DNA of 64,000 bases from Candidatus Dojkabacteria bacterium (GTDB taxonomy: Bacteria; Patescibacteriota; Dojkabacteria; SC72; JAFGCJ01): the NCBI GenBank assembly GCA_016929645.1, contig JAFGIK010000026.1, positions 14,288 to 78,287 of the forward strand. Direction: 5' to 3'. Position 1 is the stretch's first letter. Each line of letters opens with the position of its first letter. Shown here piece after piece: positions 1 through 62,053 of this stretch. Both the position numbers and the translations under genes were made by a program. Under the pieces are notes generated by a model. That model was not told the origin of the DNA, made no database searches, and was given only the letters and a program-made list of their open reading frames with translations.

Positions 1-179
1 TTACACATCCCAAAGCAAGAACAATAATTAGCACAAGTTTAAAATTTGATAATTTTGACTTTTTGATATTCTGCATTAATAATAAGATCTAGTCTTAATT
101 TAGAATATTTCTATTTTATCATAGGTCAAAGTACCTAAGCTATCTCACTTATTTACAACTATATTGAAGAGCAAATATC

Positions 180-2705: not shown

Positions 2706-3791
2706 ATGAGAGATATTATTAAAGAAACAAAGGAAAAGATATCAAAAATAAAAATAGCATTAAGCCTGGATGAAAAAGTTGATGAAATGAAAAATCTTGA
2801 GTTACAGACTTCAGATCAACATTTCTGGGATAATCCAAAGGAAGCTCAAAGTATCATGCAGAAAATTAACGAGACAAAAGATAAAGCTGACATAATAAAC
2901 TCAATCGAAACCAAATTATCTGAAATTGAAGAACTGGATGAAATGCTAGAGAAAGATCCAGATCCTCAAATAGAATTAGATATTGACAAGGAACTTGCCG
3001 ATATTACCCAAATACTTGGTAAATTTGAATTAGAACAATTTCTCTCTGGCAAATACGACATCAATAATGCAATAGTATCAATACACGCAGGCCAGGGTGG
3101 AACTGAGGCCAACGATTGGGCAGAGATGTTACTTAGGATGTATCTGAGATATGCAGAAAGACAAAAATGGCAGACAAATATAATACACCAAGTTAGAGGC
3201 GAAGAGGCAGGGCTATCCACTGTTACTTTTGAAGTAATAGGTAAATTTGCTTACGGTTACCTAAAAAGGGAAAAAGGCACTCACAGACTTGTCCGATTAT
3301 CTCCCTACAACGCACAAAATTTAAGACAAACTTCATTTGCCGGAGTTGAAGTATTACCAATGATGGAAGAGAAAGACGCATCAGATTTTGTTATCCCCGA
3401 GTGTGATCTTGAATATAAAGCTGTAAAAGCAACCGGACCTGGAGGCCAACATGTCAACAAGGCATCTACTGCAATAGTTCTAACTCATAAACCCACAGGA
3501 ATCACAGTTCACTCTTCAAGACGTAGCCAGCATCAAAACAGAGAGACGGCCTTGTATATTTTAAAATCCAGATTATGGGAGTTAGAAGAAGATAAAAAAG
3601 ACCAAGAAAGAAAAAAAATGAAAGGTGAACACAAAATTGCAGCCTGGGGAAATCAAATAAGAAATTACGTTCTGCACCCGTACAAACTTGTTAAAGATTT
3701 GCGCACAAAAGTTGAAAGCAATAGTCCAGATTCTGTGCTAAATGGAGAGCTTGATCCATTTATTGATGCTGGCATTAGATTAGTGGCATAA
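2706..3791 (+). CDS. prfB: peptide chain release factor 2 (continuous ORF, no +1 frameshift seen)
   Basis: GGQ motif (ATGPGGQHVNKAST) and SPY tripeptide region; 361 aa. Confidence 0.85.
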   Translation: MRDIIKETKEKISKIKIALSLDEKVDEMKNLELQTSDQHFWDNPKEAQSIMQKINETKDKADIINSIETKLSEIEELDEMLEKDPDPQIELDIDKELADITQILGKFELEQFLSGKYDINNAIVSIHAGQGGTEANDWAEMLLRMYLRYAERQKWQTNIIHQVRGEEAGLSTVTFEVIGKFAYGYLKREKGTHRLVRLSPYNAQNLRQTSFAGVEVLPMMEEKDASDFVIPECDLEYKAVKATGPGGQHVNKASTAIVLTHKPTGITVHSSRRSQHQNRETALYILKSRLWELEEDKKDQERKKMKGEHKIAAWGNQIRNYVLHPYKLVKDLRTKVESNSPDSVLNGELDPFIDAGIRLVA

Positions 3792-7205: not shown

Positions 7206-8816
7206 ATGAACAAAAAATATTCCTTTAATAAAATCTCCCTTTTATTCTTCATTTTTACTTGGATACTGACATACAAACTGATTTATCCCAATCAGAAACT
7301 TTATGCATCAAGTAAAACCATTCTTATCAATGAAGTTTTGTATGACCCTCAAGGATCTGACAGCGGGTACGAGTGGATTGAGTTACTAAATATAGGCACA
7401 GATTCCGTTGATCTTGAAGGTTGGAGTATCGAAGTTGCAGGTTCTGAATTCAAGCCGCAGGCAGTACTGCCATCGTTCATCATAGAACCAAATGAAATTA
7501 TAGTTATCGGAGAGTCAAACGTAACTGAAGCCGACATACAAATTAGCTCGCTAAGTTTACAGAATGGTGGATCTACCACAGATGGAGTCAGATTACTCGA
7601 CAACAATTCTGTTGTGATAGACACTCTATTATATGACGATCCCAATACAAATAATCTAGTTGATGATAAGTCTACAATCGCTACCTCTTTTGCGCCTGAT
7701 GCTAAATCTGGAAATTCATTAGTTCGGACATCATCAAACGACACAGATAATTGCAATCATGACTTTTTAGAGACCTCCATACTTACACCTGGATATAAAA
7801 ATCTAATTATTCCAGAGGCAAGAATAGAAACAACTGTCCCTACTTATATCAATCAGCAAATAACAATAGACGGCAATATGTCATCCGACCCAGATGGACA
7901 AATCATAAAATGGATATGGACAATAAATACTGATAACTCAACTCAAAATTTCTATGAACCAACAATAAATGTAAAACTTTACCAGGAGCAGGAAGTTGAG
8001 ATTGTTCTGAAAGTTATTGATAATGATAACTTATCTAGCCAAACATCTACCACAATAGAGATTATAGAAGATCCAGACAACCCAATTATTCAGACGATCA
8101 GTGACATCAAGGATCTTGATTTGAAATCTGACGTTACAATACAAGGACAGATTACAACACCAACGGCTTCAATATACAAAGATGAAATTTACATACAGGA
8201 TAATACTGGAGGTATCCGCATAAAGACGAATGATCTGAAATTTGAATACAAACATAATTACATTGTTAAAGGATTTCTAGATACTAAAAGTGGTGAGGCT
8301 AGAATCAATGCTCAGGAAACAATACCCAAAGGACAGGAAATTCAAATCGAATCAGTCAAAATAGATCTACCTTCGGATATGAGTCAATATATCGGATCCC
8401 TGATAACAATTGAGGGGAAAATCAATTCCAGCCGCGGAGATTACCTTTATATAAAAAATGACGAGGACTCAAACATAAATATCTATTTTTCAAAATTACT
8501 TCATTTCACCAAACCTAAAGATGCAAAAAATAAAAGTTATCAAATCTCAGGAATTATATCCAGCTACGGAAAAGATGAAAACGATAATTTGAAACTCAGG
8601 CTAATGCCAAGATTACAGAGTGATATTGTACCACTGTCTTCACTAGGAAAAACTGGACAAAATTTAACATCAAAGATAGTTTTCTCTGTTATTTCATCGT
8701 TATTTTTAGTATACATAAATACAATCGACTCAAAAAAGAAATTTTCTGAAATATGGACACTCAAACCGTATTTTGATAAACTTCCAACCAAGACAAAGAT
8801 TATTACGAAAACTTAA
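7206..8816 (+). CDS. secreted lamin-tail-domain (LTD) protein with PKD-like and OB-fold regions
   Basis: Signal/TM N-terminus; ILINEVLYDPQGSDSGYEWIELLN is the LTD signature; repeated LTD core later. Confidence 0.6.
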   Translation: MNKKYSFNKISLLFFIFTWILTYKLIYPNQKLYASSKTILINEVLYDPQGSDSGYEWIELLNIGTDSVDLEGWSIEVAGSEFKPQAVLPSFIIEPNEIIVIGESNVTEADIQISSLSLQNGGSTTDGVRLLDNNSVVIDTLLYDDPNTNNLVDDKSTIATSFAPDAKSGNSLVRTSSNDTDNCNHDFLETSILTPGYKNLIIPEARIETTVPTYINQQITIDGNMSSDPDGQIIKWIWTINTDNSTQNFYEPTINVKLYQEQEVEIVLKVIDNDNLSSQTSTTIEIIEDPDNPIIQTISDIKDLDLKSDVTIQGQITTPTASIYKDEIYIQDNTGGIRIKTNDLKFEYKHNYIVKGFLDTKSGEARINAQETIPKGQEIQIESVKIDLPSDMSQYIGSLITIEGKINSSRGDYLYIKNDEDSNINIYFSKLLHFTKPKDAKNKSYQISGIISSYGKDENDNLKLRLMPRLQSDIVPLSSLGKTGQNLTSKIVFSVISSLFLVYINTIDSKKKFSEIWTLKPYFDKLPTKTKIITKT

Positions 8817-8832
8817 CTTAAGACTCGAAACC

Positions 8833-9627
8833 ATGAAGAAAAACAAAAAAGATGCAAAACCTGAGGTCCAAAAAACGAAAAACGTACGACAAGAAAACAA
8901 TCGAAATCAAGGTACACTTCAGAAGCTTAGGATAAAGATGCCTCAATCAAAATTATTTTCTTTTGGGATAAAGATATTAGTATGGTTCTTGATCTTCTTT
9001 ATCACCTTAATCATTGTTGACTACGCAGTTCAATATATTAACTATAGATCAAGTGCAGCTATCGTAAATGGAGAAAAGATCTCACAAAAGGATTTTTACA
9101 ACAAGTTGCAGGATATTTATGGTGAAGGAATCTCTGAAGCAATGATTGAAGAAGTTCTTATTTATCAAGAAGCAGAAAAACGAAATATATCAATATCCGA
9201 CGATGATCTTGATAAACGAATTAGAGATTTACAACAAGCTGCAGGAGGTAAGGATAAATTCGATGAAATGCTGAAGCAAAATGCTGACACAGAAGACGAA
9301 TTCCGCGAGAAAACAAGGCTTTCAATGACAATCGAAAAAATAATCGGAGATATCGAGGTTACTGACGATGACAAACAACAATACTACGAGACATATAAAG
9401 GCACTCTGTTCACTCCGGAAGGAGAGACTCTCGCATATGAAGATGTTGAAGACTCAATTGAGGTTTGGCTAAAAGAAGAGAAGTTTGATCAGGAGTATCA
9501 AAAATGGATCGCTGACGTAAAGAAAAACTCGGTAATAGTAAACAATATCAAGAACCCAAAAGACATAGAATTTTTAGGAGTAACCAGAAGTTTCATAAAA
9601 GAACTAATGGATAAAGAAGAAAAATAG
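8833..9627 (+). CDS. membrane-anchored SurA-N-domain chaperone-like protein (no PPIase domain seen)
   Basis: Start chosen at MKKNKK downstream of the track start to avoid overlap; single TM then SurA_N-like helical region. Confidence 0.5.
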   Translation: MKKNKKDAKPEVQKTKNVRQENNRNQGTLQKLRIKMPQSKLFSFGIKILVWFLIFFITLIIVDYAVQYINYRSSAAIVNGEKISQKDFYNKLQDIYGEGISEAMIEEVLIYQEAEKRNISISDDDLDKRIRDLQQAAGGKDKFDEMLKQNADTEDEFREKTRLSMTIEKIIGDIEVTDDDKQQYYETYKGTLFTPEGETLAYEDVEDSIEVWLKEEKFDQEYQKWIADVKKNSVIVNNIKNPKDIEFLGVTRSFIKELMDKEEK

Positions 9628-9713
9628 AAGCACTAGATTTTAGTATTAATATTAACAAAACACTCTACTTCATCCTAAGTCACACAAGAAATCTGGTCAC
9701 TTAATACAATGAG

Positions 9714-10298
9714 TTATGCTTCACGTGGCTCTACAATTCCATATTCACCATCAGAAATCTTGTAAACCATGCAAAAGATGCCTTTCTCCTTATGCTTAAA
9801 TAAGAAGCATTCTTTGCCAAGGAGTTCCATATGCTCAATAGCTTCAGCTTCATACATTGGGGTGCTATCATCCATAACAAATCTCTGGGTTATTTTTGGA
9901 GAATAATTTACATAATCCATAGTATCATCAACAATATCAGTAGCATCTGTCTCGGAGGAATCGACCTTCCATGGAGATTTACCTTCCCATTGACGAAACT
10001 TATCTTTATATCGCTTTACTTTTCGGGCAAGAATATCTGTTGTTTCATCTACTAGAGCATAAACATCACTACCTGACTTTTCTACGCGAGCAATGGCTTT
10101 CGGCAGATGCATAGTTATATCAATTTTAAAATCTTTGTCTACCCCACGTGCTGCAACATGTTCAGTACATTCGACTCGAATAGATGTACAAATGTTATAA
10201 ATACGTTCGTATTTTGTTATTTTATCTTCAATATATGTTCGAATGGCATCGGTAATATCCATACCATTTCCACTGATCTGAATTTCAGGAAGTGACAT
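9714..10298 (-). CDS. hpf: ribosome hibernation promoting factor, long form
   Basis: N-terminal RaiA/HPF domain (ITDAIRTYIEDKI...) plus C-terminal dimerisation domain. Confidence 0.85.
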   Translation of the reverse strand: MSLPEIQISGNGMDITDAIRTYIEDKITKYERIYNICTSIRVECTEHVAARGVDKDFKIDITMHLPKAIARVEKSGSDVYALVDETTDILARKVKRYKDKFRQWEGKSPWKVDSSETDATDIVDDTMDYVNYSPKITQRFVMDDSTPMYEAEAIEHMELLGKECFLFKHKEKGIFCMVYKISDGEYGIVEPREA

Positions 10299-10610: not shown

Positions 10611-10755
10611 TAGTATAAATATTAAAACTTAGTAATATTTATACTAACATTAACAATGCAGTTATTCAACACGGAAAATAAAAATTATAAGCTTTGAAAA
10701 AAATGGTAGGAAAAGTGTACAGTTCTTATATCTCTATTATCAATTTTTGATTAAC

Positions 10756-10815
10756 CGTGTCCTTTAGCTCCAACTCTTGAATTGCACTCATGGTGCGAAG
10801 CTAAAGGACACGGAA
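10756..10815. repeat. perfect 14-bp inverted repeat (CCGTGTCCTTTAGC / GCTAAAGGACACGG) around a 32-bp spacer
   Basis: Read directly; lies just 3' of the GC-rich small gene on the minus strand; no U-tract, so not a classical terminator. Confidence 0.6.
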
Positions 10816-10832
10816 ATGGCGGCGCAAGGATT

Positions 10833-11090
10833 TTAATTGCACCAAGAGGAAAGAACTATCGCCCCGACGAGGGCGATAGGTAGGGCGAAGAGTGGGAAAT
10901 TCCATATGTTATGAGTTATTACCAAGCTAAGGGGCGCCCCTATGACCGCTCCAAGTGGGAGCAATGGTAACGTCCAATAGACCACTCTCTTTAGCCACTC
11001 GATTCGCTTCTCGCGGCGGATAGTATTGAGCTCAGAGAGCCAATGGCTAATGTTCCTATCTTCTTGACTATAGTCTTCGTTGTCGTCCAT
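10833..11090 (-). CDS. small two-TM membrane protein encoded in a GC-rich (about 50 percent) block, likely horizontally acquired
   Basis: ATG at 11090 with strong SD GGAGGTG 5 nt upstream (track uses GTG at 11096); codon usage GC3-rich unlike neighbours. Confidence 0.5.
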   Translation of the reverse strand: MDDNEDYSQEDRNISHWLSELNTIRREKRIEWLKRVVYWTLPLLPLGAVIGAPLSLVITHNIWNFPLFALPIALVGAIVLSSWCN

Positions 11091-11198
11091 ACTCACCTCC
11101 TATTTTTTTCAAGAGCATAATAATTATACCACACTATGGGGTGTATCTCAACAGGGACGAAACCGGGAAAGTTGCTCTGTGATCCACTCAATTCTTAT

Positions 11199-22804: not shown

Positions 22805-22982
22805 GCCCCTCCCAAAACGAAACAAAAGTTGTATAAATGTATTAATGATAAATTAACCTCAAAATTTATAATTTCTCAATATCGAGACAAACCATTGACC
22901 CATAATGTATTTTAATGTACTATTTGGTCAAGCAAAATCAAAAAATACAAATTTCTATATAAAATATCAGGAATATAGAATC

Positions 22983-25145
22983 ATGGCAGAAGATAAAGAC
23001 CTTGGCCCAAAGATTAAAACACCCCTTAGAGAAAACCTTGCAGTACCTAGTGAAACATTACGCGAAATTTATGATGCTGTAGAAACAGGACAAAATCCTA
23101 ATGCACCAGAGGAATTGTTTTATAACGATATAGAAATTGATAGATCCAAAATCCTACCTCAACAGGATTTTAATGAAGAACACACTACTAATCCAGAACA
23201 TTTAGCACAAAGAATACAAGGAGTCTTAGTTAGAACCGGAGCCTTTATTGATATAAAAAAACTTGAAGCTGCAAGAGAAGAGGCTGCAGCACAAGGAGCG
23301 CAAGGCGGACATTTTAGAGATGAAAGAGGAGACTTAACTTTGCTCAAACAAGAACCACATGACAGACTAGCACAGGTCATTGATGAGAATACAATACCAA
23401 CATCATTATCGGATTTATTTGATGCAGAGAACAGCCCAGTAACAAGTTCATACACATCAAGAACTAAAATACACCAAGGTCGGGACATAGGTTATTCAAA
23501 AGGAAAAGCTGGAATTCATATTCATACCGCCCAGACTGATAGATTTGTGTTTACAGAAGGTGCATGGGAAATAGTGCTTGTTGATATGAGGCAAGTGTCA
23601 CCAAGCTACGGTACAAGAGTCTGTCTTTCTTTTGATGCAAGTCAGGAAAATCAGCTTGCACTTGTAATACCTCCAGGAATCGCCCACACAATTGCATGCT
23701 TTAGAGAGGCTCCTGATGGTAAAGAATATGCAACACTGGTAAACTTTCCAACACTCGGATATAGCGAACTACCTCCAAGTATAGCAAAAGGAAATTATTC
23801 ACCTCAAACAGCAATCAGGGCAATGGAAGGAAGGCTTGATCCAACTAGAGTCATTGCAAATAGTGGTAATAAAACTGAAGCTGGAACAACGTTTAACTGG
23901 CTTTTATATCAAAGATGGCTATTAAACAGGGCAAAGCTAGAAGAAAGGAAAGAGGAGGAAAATACCAGAAATATTGTATTAGCTGGAGGATCAAATGGGC
24001 TTCTTGGTTCACTCATCGAACAAGAACTTTGGAAAAATGGTTTTGTAACAGAATCTGCATCCAGATATCAAGCTTTAGATGCAGATGGCATAAACATGAG
24101 AATAGATCTAACAAAACTATCTGAAGATCAAATCGTTGAATGGTTACTAGGATCGAATGCACAGGCCGTTATATTAACAGCTGCATGGACAGATGTTCCA
24201 GCAAGCATAGCATTAGCTTCATTTATAAATAAATATCAAGAAGAACTTACCATTGCAGGTATTCATGGGACAGACCCTGTAAGTGAGATAAATATTAATT
24301 TTGTTGTCAGGCTAGCAAACGCAATAAAGAAAGCAAGGGAAATCTACGGCAGGCAAATCAAACTTGTACTGCCACAAACAACAATGGCATCAATTGGCAC
24401 AATTCTAAATGCGAATTATTATGCAAGAACTAAAGCAGTTGGTATACAACAAGCACAACAAATTCTTGGTAATAATGCGTTAGTAGCAACATTTGGTTAT
24501 CCGTACGTAATCGATGCTGCACAGATACCACAATCTGCCAAATCAATGACTTTACACAAGAGAATAGAACAAGTAGTTAGGGCTATTAGGCAAGAAGGCT
24601 CTTCTGCAGTCAGTGCTTTTTTTAACGACGCCATAGATCTAACAGATATGAATCCTGTTCTTGCAAATATCTTGCAGTACATTACAAATCCGAAACAAGA
24701 ACCTAATCCTCTAGATCAAAGACTAAATTGGGTTTCAACTCTAGAACTATGCAATCTTATAGCAGACGTATACGTTTCACTATACGGAGGAGATATTGAC
24801 GAAGTGAAAAAATTATCGATTACATCAGCTTCAATGAGCGGATATAAACCAACAAATGGTGATTTATTAAGATATAACAACGCAACAGGAGAATGTAGTA
24901 ATCCTGTATATGCATGGATTACTAATGCTGTTCGAGTGATTAAACAGAAATTAAGAATAGACATCGACTTATTACAATTCATCAAAGAAGAAGCTAACTA
25001 CAGCAAAGCATATCCAAGCTTTTCGAGCTTTAATCAAGATCCTACAACTGCTTCAACTTATAGAATAAAATTAATAAACGACATAATAAGAATAATGGTA
25101 CAGAAATACGGAGCGGCAACAGTCTCCCAGGACAAGCAAGATTAA
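22983..25145 (+). CDS. large protein with RmlC-like cupin (dTDP-sugar 3,5-epimerase-like) and RmlD-like NAD(P)-binding reductase regions plus about 190-aa N-terminal extension
   Basis: GIHIHTAQ...VIPPGIAHT cupin pattern; NIVLAGGSNGLLGSLIEQEL...AVILTAAWTDV Rossmann pattern; start at ATG 22983 with AGGAA upstream. Confidence 0.55.
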   Translation: MAEDKDLGPKIKTPLRENLAVPSETLREIYDAVETGQNPNAPEELFYNDIEIDRSKILPQQDFNEEHTTNPEHLAQRIQGVLVRTGAFIDIKKLEAAREEAAAQGAQGGHFRDERGDLTLLKQEPHDRLAQVIDENTIPTSLSDLFDAENSPVTSSYTSRTKIHQGRDIGYSKGKAGIHIHTAQTDRFVFTEGAWEIVLVDMRQVSPSYGTRVCLSFDASQENQLALVIPPGIAHTIACFREAPDGKEYATLVNFPTLGYSELPPSIAKGNYSPQTAIRAMEGRLDPTRVIANSGNKTEAGTTFNWLLYQRWLLNRAKLEERKEEENTRNIVLAGGSNGLLGSLIEQELWKNGFVTESASRYQALDADGINMRIDLTKLSEDQIVEWLLGSNAQAVILTAAWTDVPASIALASFINKYQEELTIAGIHGTDPVSEININFVVRLANAIKKAREIYGRQIKLVLPQTTMASIGTILNANYYARTKAVGIQQAQQILGNNALVATFGYPYVIDAAQIPQSAKSMTLHKRIEQVVRAIRQEGSSAVSAFFNDAIDLTDMNPVLANILQYITNPKQEPNPLDQRLNWVSTLELCNLIADVYVSLYGGDIDEVKKLSITSASMSGYKPTNGDLLRYNNATGECSNPVYAWITNAVRVIKQKLRIDIDLLQFIKEEANYSKAYPSFSSFNQDPTTASTYRIKLINDIIRIMVQKYGAATVSQDKQD

Positions 25146-25740: not shown

Positions 25741-25772
25741 AATAATCGTTAGGAATTTTCAACCAAAATTAG

Positions 25773-25934
25773 TTATTTAACAATGCCTCTCTTCCTCATC
25801 TCTGCTAAAAGCTTTTCTGGAATACCACGACACGAACAATTTTTAGCATGCTCTTGGTGCCATTTTATTCTTTGTTCTATCGTGGGGTTTTTGGGCATTT
25901 TGTTTTTAAGATGCCAAGCTTTGTTGAGATTCAT
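25773..25934 (-). CDS. small conserved Cys-containing protein, 53 aa (not in supplied ORF track)
   Basis: Translates MNLNKAWHLKNKMPKNPTIEQRIKWHQEHAKNCSCRGIPEKLLAEMRKRGIVK; 33 nt upstream of flavodoxin gene on same strand; possible start at internal MPKNPT. Confidence 0.4.
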   Translation of the reverse strand: MNLNKAWHLKNKMPKNPTIEQRIKWHQEHAKNCSCRGIPEKLLAEMRKRGIVK

Positions 25935-26165
25935 TGATATTAAGATGAATGTAAATTTACATAATCAAGACAACATAAATACACAATATAATATTACTCA
26001 AAAGCCGTAAGAAGGCAATAAGATCTTAAGTAACAGGGAATACTCGCTCACAATATGGACAAGCGATGATGTAAAAATCGCAAATTACTGAACTATTAAA
26101 GATTGAAAGACAGAGATAATATCTCCACCCCTAAACCTAACAAAACATATATAATAAATAGTTAA

Positions 26166-27152
26166 ATGATATCAATAAATCCAATAAAACAATTATTAAA
26201 AAACGAGTATGGGCTTGATTGGTTCAAATTAGAAAACCTTCATGGTCATACAGACATGATATACAAAGTAACAACCCACAGGCACAAGTATGTTTTAAAA
26301 GTTTCTCTAAACAGAAAAATGTCAAAACGCCGATTTGAAAGCCAGATTAATTATATTCAATATTTACAAAATCACGACATTCTCTCACCCAAAATAATAA
26401 AACCATGCACAGGCAATTTATACACAACGATTAAGGATTATAGAAATAGGTACTCTGCTTTATTTGAATATATTGATAATTTATACAGTCCAAACTTATC
26501 CAAACCATCAGAAGCAAGGGAATATGCAAAATATATCGGAAACCTACATAAAATCTCTCATAAATACAATAATAAGCACTACTGGTATTACGATCCAATT
26601 TCGGAAGAGACTAGAAAATTAAAATACCTGGAAAAATTCGTAAAAAAATCCAAACGAAAATACCTCGCAAAACTAATAAAAATAAAGAAAGACAACATTT
26701 CAAGATATAAAAAATTAAGACCCAAACTTGGTAAGACAATGCTTTTAAATGATTTAAGCGAAGGAAATATCTTCAAAATAAATAATAATTATATATTTAT
26801 TGACTGGAATATCGCAGCAACAGGATATTTTGCAGATGAAATTGCATGGATAATCACATGGTTTTTCATCAAGAAAAATAACATGAAACATCTTTCAAAA
26901 TTTCTTGATGAATACTTGAAACATTTTCCATTAAACAGCATAGAATTGGAACTTCTAACCTTTATGCCAATTAGTTACGCTTATACAATGTGGGATAACT
27001 TCGAAGAATGTAAGACAAAGGAATTATTTAGAGAGCAGGAAAAGAAGATTCTGGATTCATCAAAAATACTGGAACAGCTTATCAGACAAGTTTCAACCTC
27101 TTTATCCCACCACCGAGCAACATACATATCCCATTCTCACGACGAACAATAA
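26166..27152 (+). CDS. APH/ChoK-like phosphotransferase family protein
   Basis: NDLSEGNIFKI...IFIDWNIAATGYFADEIAW (Brenner/DxD-like motifs). Confidence 0.6.
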   Translation: MISINPIKQLLKNEYGLDWFKLENLHGHTDMIYKVTTHRHKYVLKVSLNRKMSKRRFESQINYIQYLQNHDILSPKIIKPCTGNLYTTIKDYRNRYSALFEYIDNLYSPNLSKPSEAREYAKYIGNLHKISHKYNNKHYWYYDPISEETRKLKYLEKFVKKSKRKYLAKLIKIKKDNISRYKKLRPKLGKTMLLNDLSEGNIFKINNNYIFIDWNIAATGYFADEIAWIITWFFIKKNNMKHLSKFLDEYLKHFPLNSIELELLTFMPISYAYTMWDNFEECKTKELFREQEKKILDSSKILEQLIRQVSTSLSHHRATYISHSHDEQ

Positions 27153-27263
27153 GTATTTTACGAAAGATGATATTATTGAGATAATTCAAATATAGATATC
27201 TTTGAAGTCTAGCCAAATTCACGTCAAAGATTTTGAATATTTTAATTAATAATTAATAAATCT

Positions 27264-28031
27264 ATGGAAAAACAATTCAAAGGATTAAATAGATTCAATA
27301 TATTTATGGGGGCATTACATTTGCTACAAGCTCTTGCAGTCTATTTCATAAGTGATCCTGATAAAGGCATCGTTCCAATAACCATTAATTATCTAGAATA
27401 TGATCAAATCGCTGCAAAATTATTACCTGCAACTAAAGAAGTATTTTCAGTAAATTTGGCTTGGTTTGTTGTTATCTTTTTTCTGTTAAGCTCTGTTGCT
27501 CACTTTTTCATTGGAACTATTTATATGAGTAAATACGAATCAGATCTAAAACTCGGGATTAACAAAGTTAGATGGTTCGAATATTCACTTAGTGCAAGTG
27601 TCATGATGATAGCAATAAGCTTACTATCTGGGATCTATGATTTATCAAGTCTTATTATGATTTTTACACTTGACGCACTTATGAATCTATTAGGACTTGC
27701 AATGGAAAAAGAAAATCAAGGGAAATCAAAGCTGAATTGGTTAACTTTTATACTCGGCTGTATAGCAGGAATTGTCCCATGGATTGTTTACGGAATTTAT
27801 GTTTATGGGGCAAGTCAATATGGAGGAGGAAATATTCCAGATTTCGTTTATTGGATTTACGTGTCTATCTTTTTGTTCTTTAATAGTTTTGCTGTAAATA
27901 TGTTTTTGCAATATAAGAAAATTGGACCTTGGAAAGATTATCTGTATGGAGAAAAGGTATATATTATATTAAGCTTGGTAGCAAAGTCTTTACTTGCATG
28001 GCAGGTATTTGCTGGAACATTGAGACCATAG
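27264..28031 (+). CDS. heliorhodopsin (7-TM retinal protein)
   Basis: Recalled heliorhodopsin motifs all present: N-terminal FNxxxGxxHLLQ, VRWFEYSLSASVM, GCIAGIVPW, FLFFNSFA, YIILSLVAKSLLAWQVF (Schiff-base Lys). Confidence 0.75.
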   Translation: MEKQFKGLNRFNIFMGALHLLQALAVYFISDPDKGIVPITINYLEYDQIAAKLLPATKEVFSVNLAWFVVIFFLLSSVAHFFIGTIYMSKYESDLKLGINKVRWFEYSLSASVMMIAISLLSGIYDLSSLIMIFTLDALMNLLGLAMEKENQGKSKLNWLTFILGCIAGIVPWIVYGIYVYGASQYGGGNIPDFVYWIYVSIFLFFNSFAVNMFLQYKKIGPWKDYLYGEKVYIILSLVAKSLLAWQVFAGTLRP

Positions 28032-28049
28032 GGTTAGAAAAATAGGGAA

Positions 28050-28470
28050 AAAATGCCGAGAATGTTGAAGTTGCTAATGGGTATATCTCCACTTGCGGAA
28101 GCTGGATTCACTTTCCGCTCATTTCATTCGCTTCAAGTATGTATCGTGTCAGCCACTCGTCTTTGCTAATGCTCGACTCGTGGGACACAGCTCTGCACTA
28201 CGTCTCTTTTCGTTACTTACTCACTTTGTTCGTAAAACTCAAAGTACTCAGCACTCCTGTCGACACCCAATCATTCTCGCTTTGCTCGAATTCTTGGGTC
28301 TCCAGTTGCGAACCTGTTTCTGGTTCTCAACAGAATCTAACAAGTACCTTAGGAATACAACACTACGTATTCCCAAGGTATTGCCAAACGTTAGGATTTC
28401 ATGATGCCAAATTCCTAAAGCGAAAAATTGAAATGTGTTGAATTTAAGAGGTTTTGAGAATTTTTATAAT
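28050..28470. ncRNA. candidate structured non-coding RNA of unknown class (GC-rich island)
   Basis: About 48 percent GC vs about 33 percent background; several nested perfect/near-perfect helices (e.g. 12-bp CCUUAGGAAUAC/GUAUUCCCAAGG); only overlapping multi-frame ORFs without RBS. Confidence 0.3.
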
Positions 28471-28479
28471 GGTAAACCA

Positions 28480-28550
28480 TTGCGGGACCAGGATTCGAAC
28501 CTGGACTAGGCGCTTCAGAGGCGCCCGTCCTACCATTAGACGATCCCGCA
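28480..28550 (-). tRNA. tRNA-Gln (anticodon CUG)
   Basis: Hand-folded cloverleaf: acceptor UGCGGGA/UCCCGCA (U1-A72), 3-bp D-stem, anticodon stem GGCGC/GCGCC loop CUCUGAA, T-arm CCAGG-UUCGAAU-CCUGG. Confidence 0.85.
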
Positions 28551-28806
28551 GTTCAATAAGTAAATTTTAAAAAAGCTTAGAACATCTATCAACTAAAAGT
28601 AATTTTAGCAGCAAATACAATAAATCAACAGAATTGTACCACAAAATAATAAATTATCTCATACATCAATTTGCCTCGAATGCAACTCACTAATTACTAA
28701 TAATGAGCCAATTAAATTCGCATAATTTTTAAAACTTGCAAAAAATTTTAAATTTCATTATTATGTCCTGTTGATTGCCGATTTTTATATACAAAATTCA
28801 ATATTT

Positions 28807-61613: not shown

Positions 61614-61843
61614 TATTTATCTTGTGTAAATTTAAAATATATTTGTTCGGAAGTAGTCTGATAACCTATTGAAAATTGGTAATGCCAGACGACTCTCGTT
61701 TCCCTCGCTAGATACATAGATAAAACCTGATCCATGTATCCACACCGATTGCCCTGCAAACTACTGAGTCTATAATCACCACAATGTACATTATATGTAT
61801 ATGGTCGGATGGCAACCCCACGGCTCCCTTTTAGATGTATAAA

Positions 61844-61885
61844 TCGGGGTGACTCGACTTGAACGAGCGACCCCACGCACCCCAT
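61844..61885 (-). pseudogene. 3' half of a second tRNA-Pro(GGG) (anticodon loop to discriminator)
   Basis: AUGGGGU-GCGUG-GGGUC-GCUCG-UUCAAGU-CGAGU-CACCCCG-A; acceptor strand complements the 5' half at 62015-62053. Confidence 0.55.
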
Positions 61886-61887
61886 TC

Positions 61888-61990
61888 TGTCAACTTACAA
61901 ATCGGGATGACCCGACTTGAACGGGCGACCTCACGCACCCCATGCGTGCGCACTAGCCAACTGTGCTACATCCCGATTTGTAAGTTGACA
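61888..61990. repeat. perfect 15-bp inverted repeats (TGTCAACTTACAAAT / ATTTGTAAGTTGACA) immediately flanking the intact tRNA-Pro, extending its acceptor stem to a 22-bp helix
   Basis: Read directly at 61888-61902 and 61976-61990. Confidence 0.7.
61902..61975 (-). tRNA. tRNA-Pro (anticodon GGG), intact
   Basis: Hand fold: CGGGAUG/CAUCCCG acceptor (C1-G72), D GCAC/GUGC, anticodon stem CACGC/GCGUG loop AUGGGGU, variable AGGUC, T-arm GCCCG-UUCAAGU-CGGGU, discriminator A. Confidence 0.85.
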
Positions 61991-62014
61991 TCTTTCCCCA
62001 ACATGGGAAACGTC

Positions 62015-62053
62015 TCCCCATGCGTGTGCTCTAGCCAAATGAGCTACACCCCG
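62015..62053 (-). pseudogene. 5' half of the second tRNA-Pro(GGG) (acceptor to anticodon loop)
   Basis: CGGGGUG-UA-GCUC-AUUUGGCUA-GAGC-A-CACGC-AUGGGGA; combines with 61844-61885 into a perfect cloverleaf. Confidence 0.55.

Follow-up and report, generated by a model that had tools for sequence, protein, structure and literature searches.

The locus described here lies in a window of 64 kb (the whole stretch of DNA that was analysed, overall GC 0.346) from an uncultured Candidatus Dojkabacteria bacterium (CPR/Patescibacteria). A structured block is found there between two convergent units, a heliorhodopsin gene on the plus strand and a tRNA-Gln(CUG) gene on the minus strand. The tRNA gene, which a preliminary description of this DNA had placed beside the block, was confirmed at the expected position. 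The genes and the signal that frame the block are listed below.

27264-28031, plus strand: heliorhodopsin gene, with its stop codon at 28031 (Pfam PF18761, E = 1.5e-92)
28480-28550, minus strand: tRNA-Gln(CUG) (Rfam and ARAGORN; 98.5 bits with the Dojkabacteria tRNA-Gln model)
28564-28592, minus strand: sigma-70-like promoter TTGATA-17-TAAAAT, a consensus match only, about 14 nt upstream of tRNA-Gln

The tRNA-Gln(CUG) gene has no encoded CCA, and the bases that follow it are UGG. Four promoter-like sites were found in the scanned region versus 3.4 expected, and the site upstream of tRNA-Gln was the only one able to drive the tRNA together with its trailer; a consensus scan of the spacer between tRNA-Gln and the block revealed no dedicated promoter for the block. 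No site passing the criteria for an intrinsic terminator was detected on either strand of the scanned region around the block. The neighbouring genes identified by Pfam encode the heliorhodopsin, an APH-like kinase, a flavodoxin and an ABC transporter, and neither the ORF list nor Pfam placed an integrase, transposase, recombinase or Rep gene beside the block.

The jump in GC content that was originally noticed here was reproduced in 200-nt windows, which gave values of 0.455 (28000-28199), 0.46 (28100-28299) and 0.42 (28200-28399) compared to 0.24-0.35 in the flanks; the 157-nt centre of the block has a GC content of 0.48. When the minus-strand RNA of 28095-28440 was folded, a minimum free energy of -122.9 kcal/mol was obtained (z = -7.30), and 0 of 100 shuffled sequences folded as well. 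The plus-strand RNA of the same interval reached -94.4 kcal/mol (z = -4.62), which is 28.5 kcal/mol weaker, and for the whole 451-nt interval the z-scores were -4.39 (minus strand) versus -1.89 (plus strand). Furthermore, in a scan of the 64 kb with non-overlapping 300-nt windows on both strands (n = 424; mean z = -0.22, sd 1.49), the minus-strand window starting at 28120 ranked first among the 424 window/strand folds, with z = -7.4. The same strand bias was seen with DNA energy parameters (z = -5.92 for the minus strand versus -3.65 for the plus strand). The three nested helices reported in the preliminary description are all present in the sequence and in the minimum-free-energy fold; the helices as such thus stand, whereas the plus-strand sense in which they had been read does not, since the z-scores of the 28095-28440 folds (-7.30 versus -4.62) favour the strand of the tRNA. 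The block is a real, unusually well-structured and unclassified element, and the fold models favour the tRNA-Gln (minus) strand as the relevant one.

A second GC-rich region of the window, at 10720-11100 (GC 0.50), also folds well, with z of about -5 on both strands. It contains a 17-bp inverted-repeat hairpin at ~10755-10815 and, by eye, a small GC-rich minus-strand ORF with a ribosome-binding site (GGAGGTGAGTATG near 11090), and is probably a small membrane-protein gene with its terminator, not an RNA gene.

The predicted minus-strand fold of the block is built from an 18-bp closing stem, P1, which encloses five hairpins (A, B, M1, M2 and M3). Its parts are given below in the order of the RNA, with RNA positions numbered downward from window position 28480.

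28095-28435, minus strand: structured element as a whole, closing-stem domain plus 3' hairpin (minimum-free-energy folds, fold scan, shuffles)
RNA 2-45, minus strand: AU-rich spacer (minimum-free-energy fold)
28414-28435, minus strand: 5' arm of closing stem P1, CAUUUCA-AUUU-UUCGCUUUAGG (fold; inverted repeats I4/I5)
28335-28389 (RNA 92-146), minus strand: hairpin A, 24 bp, one bulge, 6-nt loop (fold; inverted repeat I1)
28305-28331 (RNA 150-176), minus strand: hairpin B, GUUG-A-GAACC / GGUUC-G-CAAC, 7-nt loop (fold)
28262-28302 (RNA 179-219), minus strand: hairpin M1, CCCAA-GA-AUUC-GA-GC-AAA-GC-GA-GAAU-GA-UUGGG (fold)
28195-28254 (RNA 227-286), minus strand: hairpin M2, M1-like architecture with an AAA tip (fold)
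28146-28188 (RNA 293-335), minus strand: hairpin M3, GUGUC-CCAC-GA-GUC...GAC-GA-GUGG-CU-GACAC (fold)
28120-28137, minus strand: 3' arm of closing stem P1, CUUGAAGCGAAUGAAAUG (fold; inverted repeats I4/I5)
28095-28118 (RNA 363-386), minus strand: 3' hairpin F, GCGGAA...UUCCGC followed by A, directly after P1 (fold)

P1 comprises 7 + 11 bp flanking a 4-nt bulge (RNA 46-52/355-361 and 57-67/344-354). The 12-bp hairpin singled out earlier is part of hairpin A, and downstream of the last minus-strand hairpins there are U-runs (GGCAUUUUUU).

The most distinctive feature of the 28095-28440 fold is a set of five tandem G·A/A·G 2x2 loops (5'-GA/5'-GA) flanked by C-G pairs. Such loops occurred on average 0.17 times, and at most twice, in 300 dinucleotide shuffles. 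Two of them lie in M1, two in M2 and one in M3. The symmetric internal loops of the fold are nearly all purine-purine, no A·C single mismatches occur within its helices, and G·U pairs are not enriched (11 versus ~16 in shuffles). Because the G·A loops turn into U·C mismatches on the complement, they account for most of the asymmetry between the minus- and plus-strand folds. All three M hairpins share the design of a helix, a tandem G·A/A·G loop and a further helix, and M1 and M2 have an extended design in common (helix, GA/GA, helix, GA/GA, two base pairs and an AAA loop). The 19-nt tips of M1 and M2 (AUUCGAGCAAAGCGAGAAU / UUACGAACAAAGUGAGUAA) differ at six positions, all of which fall within three base pairs, and all three pairs are compensated (AU/UA, UA/AU and GC/AU); the unpaired bases of the tips (GA, AAA and GA) are identical at 7 of 7 positions. 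In addition, the sequence similarity between M1 and M3 is significant (p = 0.004). From the compensated M1/M2 tips and the M1/M3 similarity, it follows that the element grew by internal duplication while pairing was kept. The compensated changes argue for constraint on a folded single strand, with a covariation-type signal that is limited to these paralogous tips inside the element. Against an RNA function, the pairing of the paralogous hairpins may also stem from recent duplication and not from selection.

The borders of the block carry marks of the adjacent tRNA gene, in the form of an imperfect direct repeat with the following two copies.

28456-28496, minus strand: direct-repeat copy 1, GAATCCTGGTCCCGCAA TGG..TTCTC, 17 nt of the tRNA-Gln 3' end plus 24 nt of trailer
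28058-28109, minus strand: direct-repeat copy 2, GAATCCAGCTTCCGCAA GTGG...TTCTC, its end 27 nt away from the stop codon of heliorhodopsin

The 17-mer at 28093-28109 on the minus strand (GAATCCAGCTTCCGCAA / GAAUCCAGCUUCCGCAA) equals the last 17 bases of tRNA-Gln with 3 mismatches. By calculation, 0.03 such matches are expected per window, an expectation weakened by a second 3-mismatch match (GAATCCTGTTCTTGCAA) at 24650-24666 on the plus strand, which lies inside a 746-aa ORF (22905-25145) and may be due to chance. When gaps are allowed in the alignment, the repeat reaches into the trailer and spans 41 nt in the copy on the tRNA side and 52 nt in the distant one, with only moderate significance (p about 0.02-0.06 by alignment shuffling). 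Between the two copies lie ~346 unique bases, essentially the domain closed by P1, and the block ends form imperfect inverted repeats with 79% complementarity. Hairpin F mirrors both strands of the tRNA-Gln acceptor stem, save for a single compensated pair (A-U in place of G-C), and also carries the discriminator A; its match to the Dojkabacteria tRNA-Gln covariance model was weak and confined to the acceptor stem (3.2 bits, E = 0.14-2.2). No 5' half of tRNA-Gln was found elsewhere in the window. The bracketing of the block by imperfect copies of the tRNA-Gln 3' end and trailer suggests that it arrived by insertion. An alternative reading of the block as internal tandem repeats was discarded, as TRF yielded only an 11-nt repeat.

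Another tRNA gene of the window is itself interrupted. A tRNA-Pro(GGG) at 61843-62053 on the minus strand is split in the anticodon loop into a 5' half (62053-62016) and a 3' half (61879-61843), which form a perfect 74-nt tRNA-Pro when joined in silico (ARAGORN). Its 136-nt insert holds an intact tRNA-Pro(GGG) at 61976-61901 with a different acceptor stem; a 14-nt inverted repeat without mismatches (TGTCAACTTACAAA / TTTGTAAGTTGACA) encloses this inner tRNA, and both junctions carry a duplicated ATGGGG. The arrangement is either a nested insertion or intron-like.

The organism is isolated, in that its best non-self GluRS match is 67% identical. In each of the six relatives that were examined, tRNA-Gln(CUG) is located downstream of GluRS, and the sequence after the tRNA varies from one to another. 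The most similar relative, L012, is fully syntenic over RecX, RecJ, AspRS, an S11 peptidase, GluRS, the ABC permease and the ABC ATPase; in this genome the ABC ATPase (72% identical) is followed by tRNA-Gln, 33 nt and then flavodoxin (40% identical). A segment of 2.7 kb in the window (25741-28479), which contains the block, the heliorhodopsin gene, the APH-like kinase and a 53-aa ORF, thus replaces the 33 nt of L012 (12641-12672), where the site at tRNA-Gln is empty; with a GluRS identity of 67%, L012 is a distant relative. In L014 and L003, a protein gene immediately follows tRNA-Gln, while L013 and L016 have another GC-rich block in common after tRNA-Gln, which cannot be aligned to the block in the window; the L016 block folds no better than shuffled sequences (z = 0.25). 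The L013 and L015 contigs end 52 nt and 69 nt after tRNA-Gln, respectively, and the Logan assembly of the same sample breaks within the block at 28286-28296. These assembly breaks are compatible with strain heterogeneity at the tRNA-Gln site and prove nothing by themselves. Taken together, the compared loci indicate that the tRNA-Gln 3' end is a variable site among Dojkabacteria.

Some of these related loci have sequences of interest in their own right. In L013 (9711-9762) and L016 (10073-10240), a conserved GC-rich and purine-rich sequence lies directly after tRNA-Gln (GUCCCGAGAG...CGAGGGUC), which by eye can fold into a hairpin that contains a tandem G·A loop (CCC-GA-G / C-GA-GGG). In L016, GluRS and tRNA-Gln are also separated by 400 nt of non-coding DNA (9594-9998), which has T-loop-like strings (GGTTCGATTAAATC and GGGGTTCAAATCTG) and no Rfam match at gathering thresholds. 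A similar hairpin-like sequence (GTCCCGAG...CGAGGG(A/G)) precedes small GIY-YIG-type nuclease ORFs in L044 (~3150-3260) and L092 (~7820-7900), whose starts were read by eye as MWYVYILEC... and MYSVYILEC..., and the L044 site is just downstream of a tRNA-Gln. The GTCCCGAG motif may be recurrent and linked to mobile nuclease genes near tRNAs.

No homologue of the block emerged in other genomes, and with it none of the covariation that the preliminary description had proposed to look for. Blastn, nhmmer and a covariance model found no homologue in the 0.5-0.8 Mb of related and tRNA-Gln loci that were fetched; the block has one copy in the 64 kb and no second in the 0.8 Mb of fetched loci. A covariance model of M1-M3 recovered only its self-match over 539 kb. 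Phages and plasmids gave no match with blastn in distant mode, and exact 24-25-mers of the block were absent from viral contigs; four matches of the motif CAAAGYGAG..CGARCAAAGYGAG in viral contigs turned out to be unrelated tandem repeats. Metagenomes returned nothing for an exact 36-mer of tRNA-Gln, and a 25-mer of its 5' part identified 120 metagenomic loci, mostly from high-GC phyla, none of which (0 of 120) has the block. Heliorhodopsin homologues of 76-85% identity lie in unrelated contexts with no conserved synteny and no block downstream. The block is therefore an orphan at a variable site. The heliorhodopsin itself is 85% identical to its best non-self match and has a different context in every relative examined; this identity, set against the 67% of GluRS, together with the differing contexts, suggests that heliorhodopsin moves horizontally among Dojkabacteria.

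The comparison with known RNA families proposed at the outset was performed and gave no matching family. Rfam 15 (4227 models, gathering thresholds) identified only the tRNA at this locus when applied to the whole window, and with E <= 10 and permissive filters the region 27950-28600 yielded only short, low-scoring matches to unrelated families, including a plastid 3'UTR hairpin and miRNA precursors. Six related loci gave tRNAs alone. SRP RNA, 6S, ROOL, GOLLD, OLE, HEARO, raiA, riboswitches and group I/II introns were rejected in the absence of an Rfam covariance match, and tmRNA was rejected because neither ARAGORN nor Rfam detected one and no tag-peptide-like frame is present; the output of relaxed ARAGORN on the block was noise. 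The view of the block as non-coding, highly structured and of no known class was thus upheld, whereas the suggestion of a divergent RNase P or another known large non-coding RNA was not. With no Rfam match and nothing homologous in relatives, orthologue-based support is absent.

A very divergent housekeeping RNA (RNase P RNA, tmRNA, SRP RNA or 6S) would account for the size of ~320-390 nt and for a closing helix like that of RNase P RNA or tmRNA, and the GGAAAGUG string is indeed present. However, RNase P RNA has no covariance-model match at gathering thresholds or at E <= 10, and the resemblance to its P4 strands dissolves on inspection: the CR-I-like and CR-V-like strings, GGAAAGUG (minus strand, 28109-28116, in the 3' hairpin) and ACAGAAUC (plus strand, 28331-28338), are on opposite strands and therefore cannot both be P4 strands of one RNA. 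Moreover, the block is missing from the tRNA-Gln site of the relatives, genomes in which an RNA of this kind should be detectable, and we consider a housekeeping RNA very improbable. Just as improbable is a protein-coding gene, or a pseudogene recently decayed from a foreign, GC-richer source. The two overlapping plus-strand frames that had been described do exist (28093-28404, 103 aa with a TTG start, and 28139-28441, 100 aa), and purines are frequent on the minus strand (A 0.315, G 0.26). But a C/T-rich strand alone yields open frames of this kind, all three minus-strand frames are rich in stop codons, and public gene callers placed no gene at the block on the partial contigs L001 and L002. 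We judged both ORFs to be spurious: they have no Pfam match, and homologues numbered 0 among 1.84 billion representative proteins and none among 5.8 billion clusters, so the conserved protein that would have spoken against a non-coding block did not appear.

The hairpin cluster could instead be a bidirectional terminator or insulator for the convergent tRNA-Gln and heliorhodopsin units. It is located exactly between the heliorhodopsin stop (28031) and the tRNA end (28480), both of its strands fold well, and minus-strand U-runs (GGCAUUUUUU) come after the last hairpins. This explanation is nonetheless improbable, since intrinsic-terminator criteria are passed nowhere on either strand, a length of 340 nt, six hairpins and a long-range closing stem of 18 bp far exceed the needs of termination, and nothing comparable exists in relatives with heliorhodopsin or tRNA-Gln. 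A stronger competitor, which we still hold to be unlikely on balance, is a mobile-element relic or miniature at the level of DNA, derived from an element that targeted tRNA-Gln, with the hairpins serving as DNA or single-stranded DNA recognition structures and any transcript being incidental; variants include a deleted integrative element, a cis-mobilisable att-flanked cassette, a MITE and the single-strand origin of an integrated rolling-circle element. In its favour are the direct repeat of the tRNA-Gln 3' end and trailer around ~346 unique bases, the P1 arms, readable as 18-22-bp imperfect terminal inverted repeats (I4/I5), a GC content that deviates from the genome, and the strand bias that persists with DNA parameters. 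The variability of the site (a gene after the tRNA in L012, L014 and L003, a different block in L013 and L016), the ends of the L013 and L015 contigs and the Logan break within the block, as well as the small structured insertion at the tRNA-Pro locus, fit it as well. Against it, there is no integrase, transposase or Rep gene nearby, no second copy in the 64 kb or in the 0.8 Mb of fetched loci, and no phage, plasmid or viral-contig match, and the repeat of 41-52 nt exceeds the length of a transposase target duplication. The compensated paralogous hairpins, which kept their unpaired bases, also suit selection on a single strand better than decay.

Our preferred explanation, held tentatively and at slightly less than an even chance, is that the block encodes a lineage-specific structured RNA of ~340 nt that forms the 3' trailer of tRNA-Gln and that entered as a small insertion without ORFs. 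The insertion would have taken place at the tRNA-Gln 3' end. Since no separate promoter is evident, transcription would proceed by read-through from the tRNA-Gln promoter, and the strand, the adjacency and the lack of a separate promoter-like site are all consistent with co-transcription with the tRNA. The 5' side of the RNA would be freed when the 3' end of the CCA-less tRNA is cut by RNase Z-type processing. The compact RNA would then persist, with its repeated G·A hairpins acting as putative protein-binding or tertiary-contact modules, and the acceptor-stem-like hairpin F after the closing stem might, speculatively, mark the 3' end. This trailer RNA and the mobile element considered above overlap, as a mobile mini-element may carry an RNA, and single-sequence folding of a block without homologues cannot prove function.

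A bolder proposal, which seems to us rather improbable, is that the block is the first of a new CPR class of small ORF-less elements that insert at tRNA 3' ends, are cut out by tRNA-processing enzymes of the host and yield a protein-recruiting RNA. Such an element would be expressed within the tRNA transcript, bounded by the real tRNA and, at its other end, by an acceptor-stem mimic, and would be excised as a compact RNA with repeated tandem-G·A hairpins for the recruitment of a protein of the host or of the element. Under this proposal, the nested tRNA-Pro insertion would be a second sign of tRNA-gene-targeted DNA in the lineage. Reduced CPR genomes have little non-coding DNA, and most such blocks prove functional. 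If it is a real RNA, the tRNA-Gln trailer would add a large structured RNA of no known class to a reduced CPR genome, with its unusual design of an 18-bp clamp and five tandem G·A motifs spread over three paralogous hairpins. Its location, with a tRNA on one side and a degenerate copy of the end of that tRNA on the other, ties RNA structure to insertion at tRNA sites, and, if true, the preferred explanation would provide a tangible starting point for understanding how small non-coding elements are acquired by CPR genomes. As an orphan of a single genome, the block has its value as a well-characterised candidate and not as a discovery.

Surveys of GC-rich intergenic regions have collected orphan structured-RNA candidates from AT-rich genomes (PMC8632094, PMC11109978). 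In these surveys, candidates were accepted on covariation among many representatives, whereas the block is a single representative; like those candidates, it is a GC-rich, ORF-poor intergenic region of an AT-rich genome with strong predicted structure (PMC8632094, PMC11109978). With islets and cis-mobilisable elements that carry att repeats at tRNA 3' ends, the block shares a bracketing repeat, a variable site and a deviant composition, but it has only ~346 unique bases, no integrase or other ORF, no second copy and no phage or plasmid relative. As regards a MITE, the block has imperfect inverted repeats of 79% complementarity, a flanking repeat that greatly exceeds the length of a target-site duplication, and one copy in the 64 kb.

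Large ornate bacterial RNAs such as ROOL, GOLLD, OLE, HEARO and raiA are often found near tRNAs or mobile DNA. The block is likewise large, multi-hairpin, non-coding and adjacent to a tRNA; unlike them, it matches no Rfam family and has repeated tandem G·A hairpins instead, and it is smaller than ROOL, GOLLD and OLE. Its five 5'-GA/5'-GA loops, flanked by C-G pairs, bear only a resemblance to the tandem sheared G·A motifs of k-turn and C/D-box-type protein-binding modules, and the 3-nt bulge that defines a k-turn is missing from them. Finally, we take the block to be comparable to the small RNAs derived from tRNA 3' external transcribed spacers, for example 3'ETS-leuZ of E. coli. Known RNAs derived from such spacers are short sponge RNAs, in contrast to the closed multi-hairpin domain of ~340 nt described here. 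Like 3'ETS-leuZ, the block sits immediately 3' of a tRNA, shares the strand of that tRNA and has no evident promoter of its own, and it would be released through putative processing of the tRNA 3' end.
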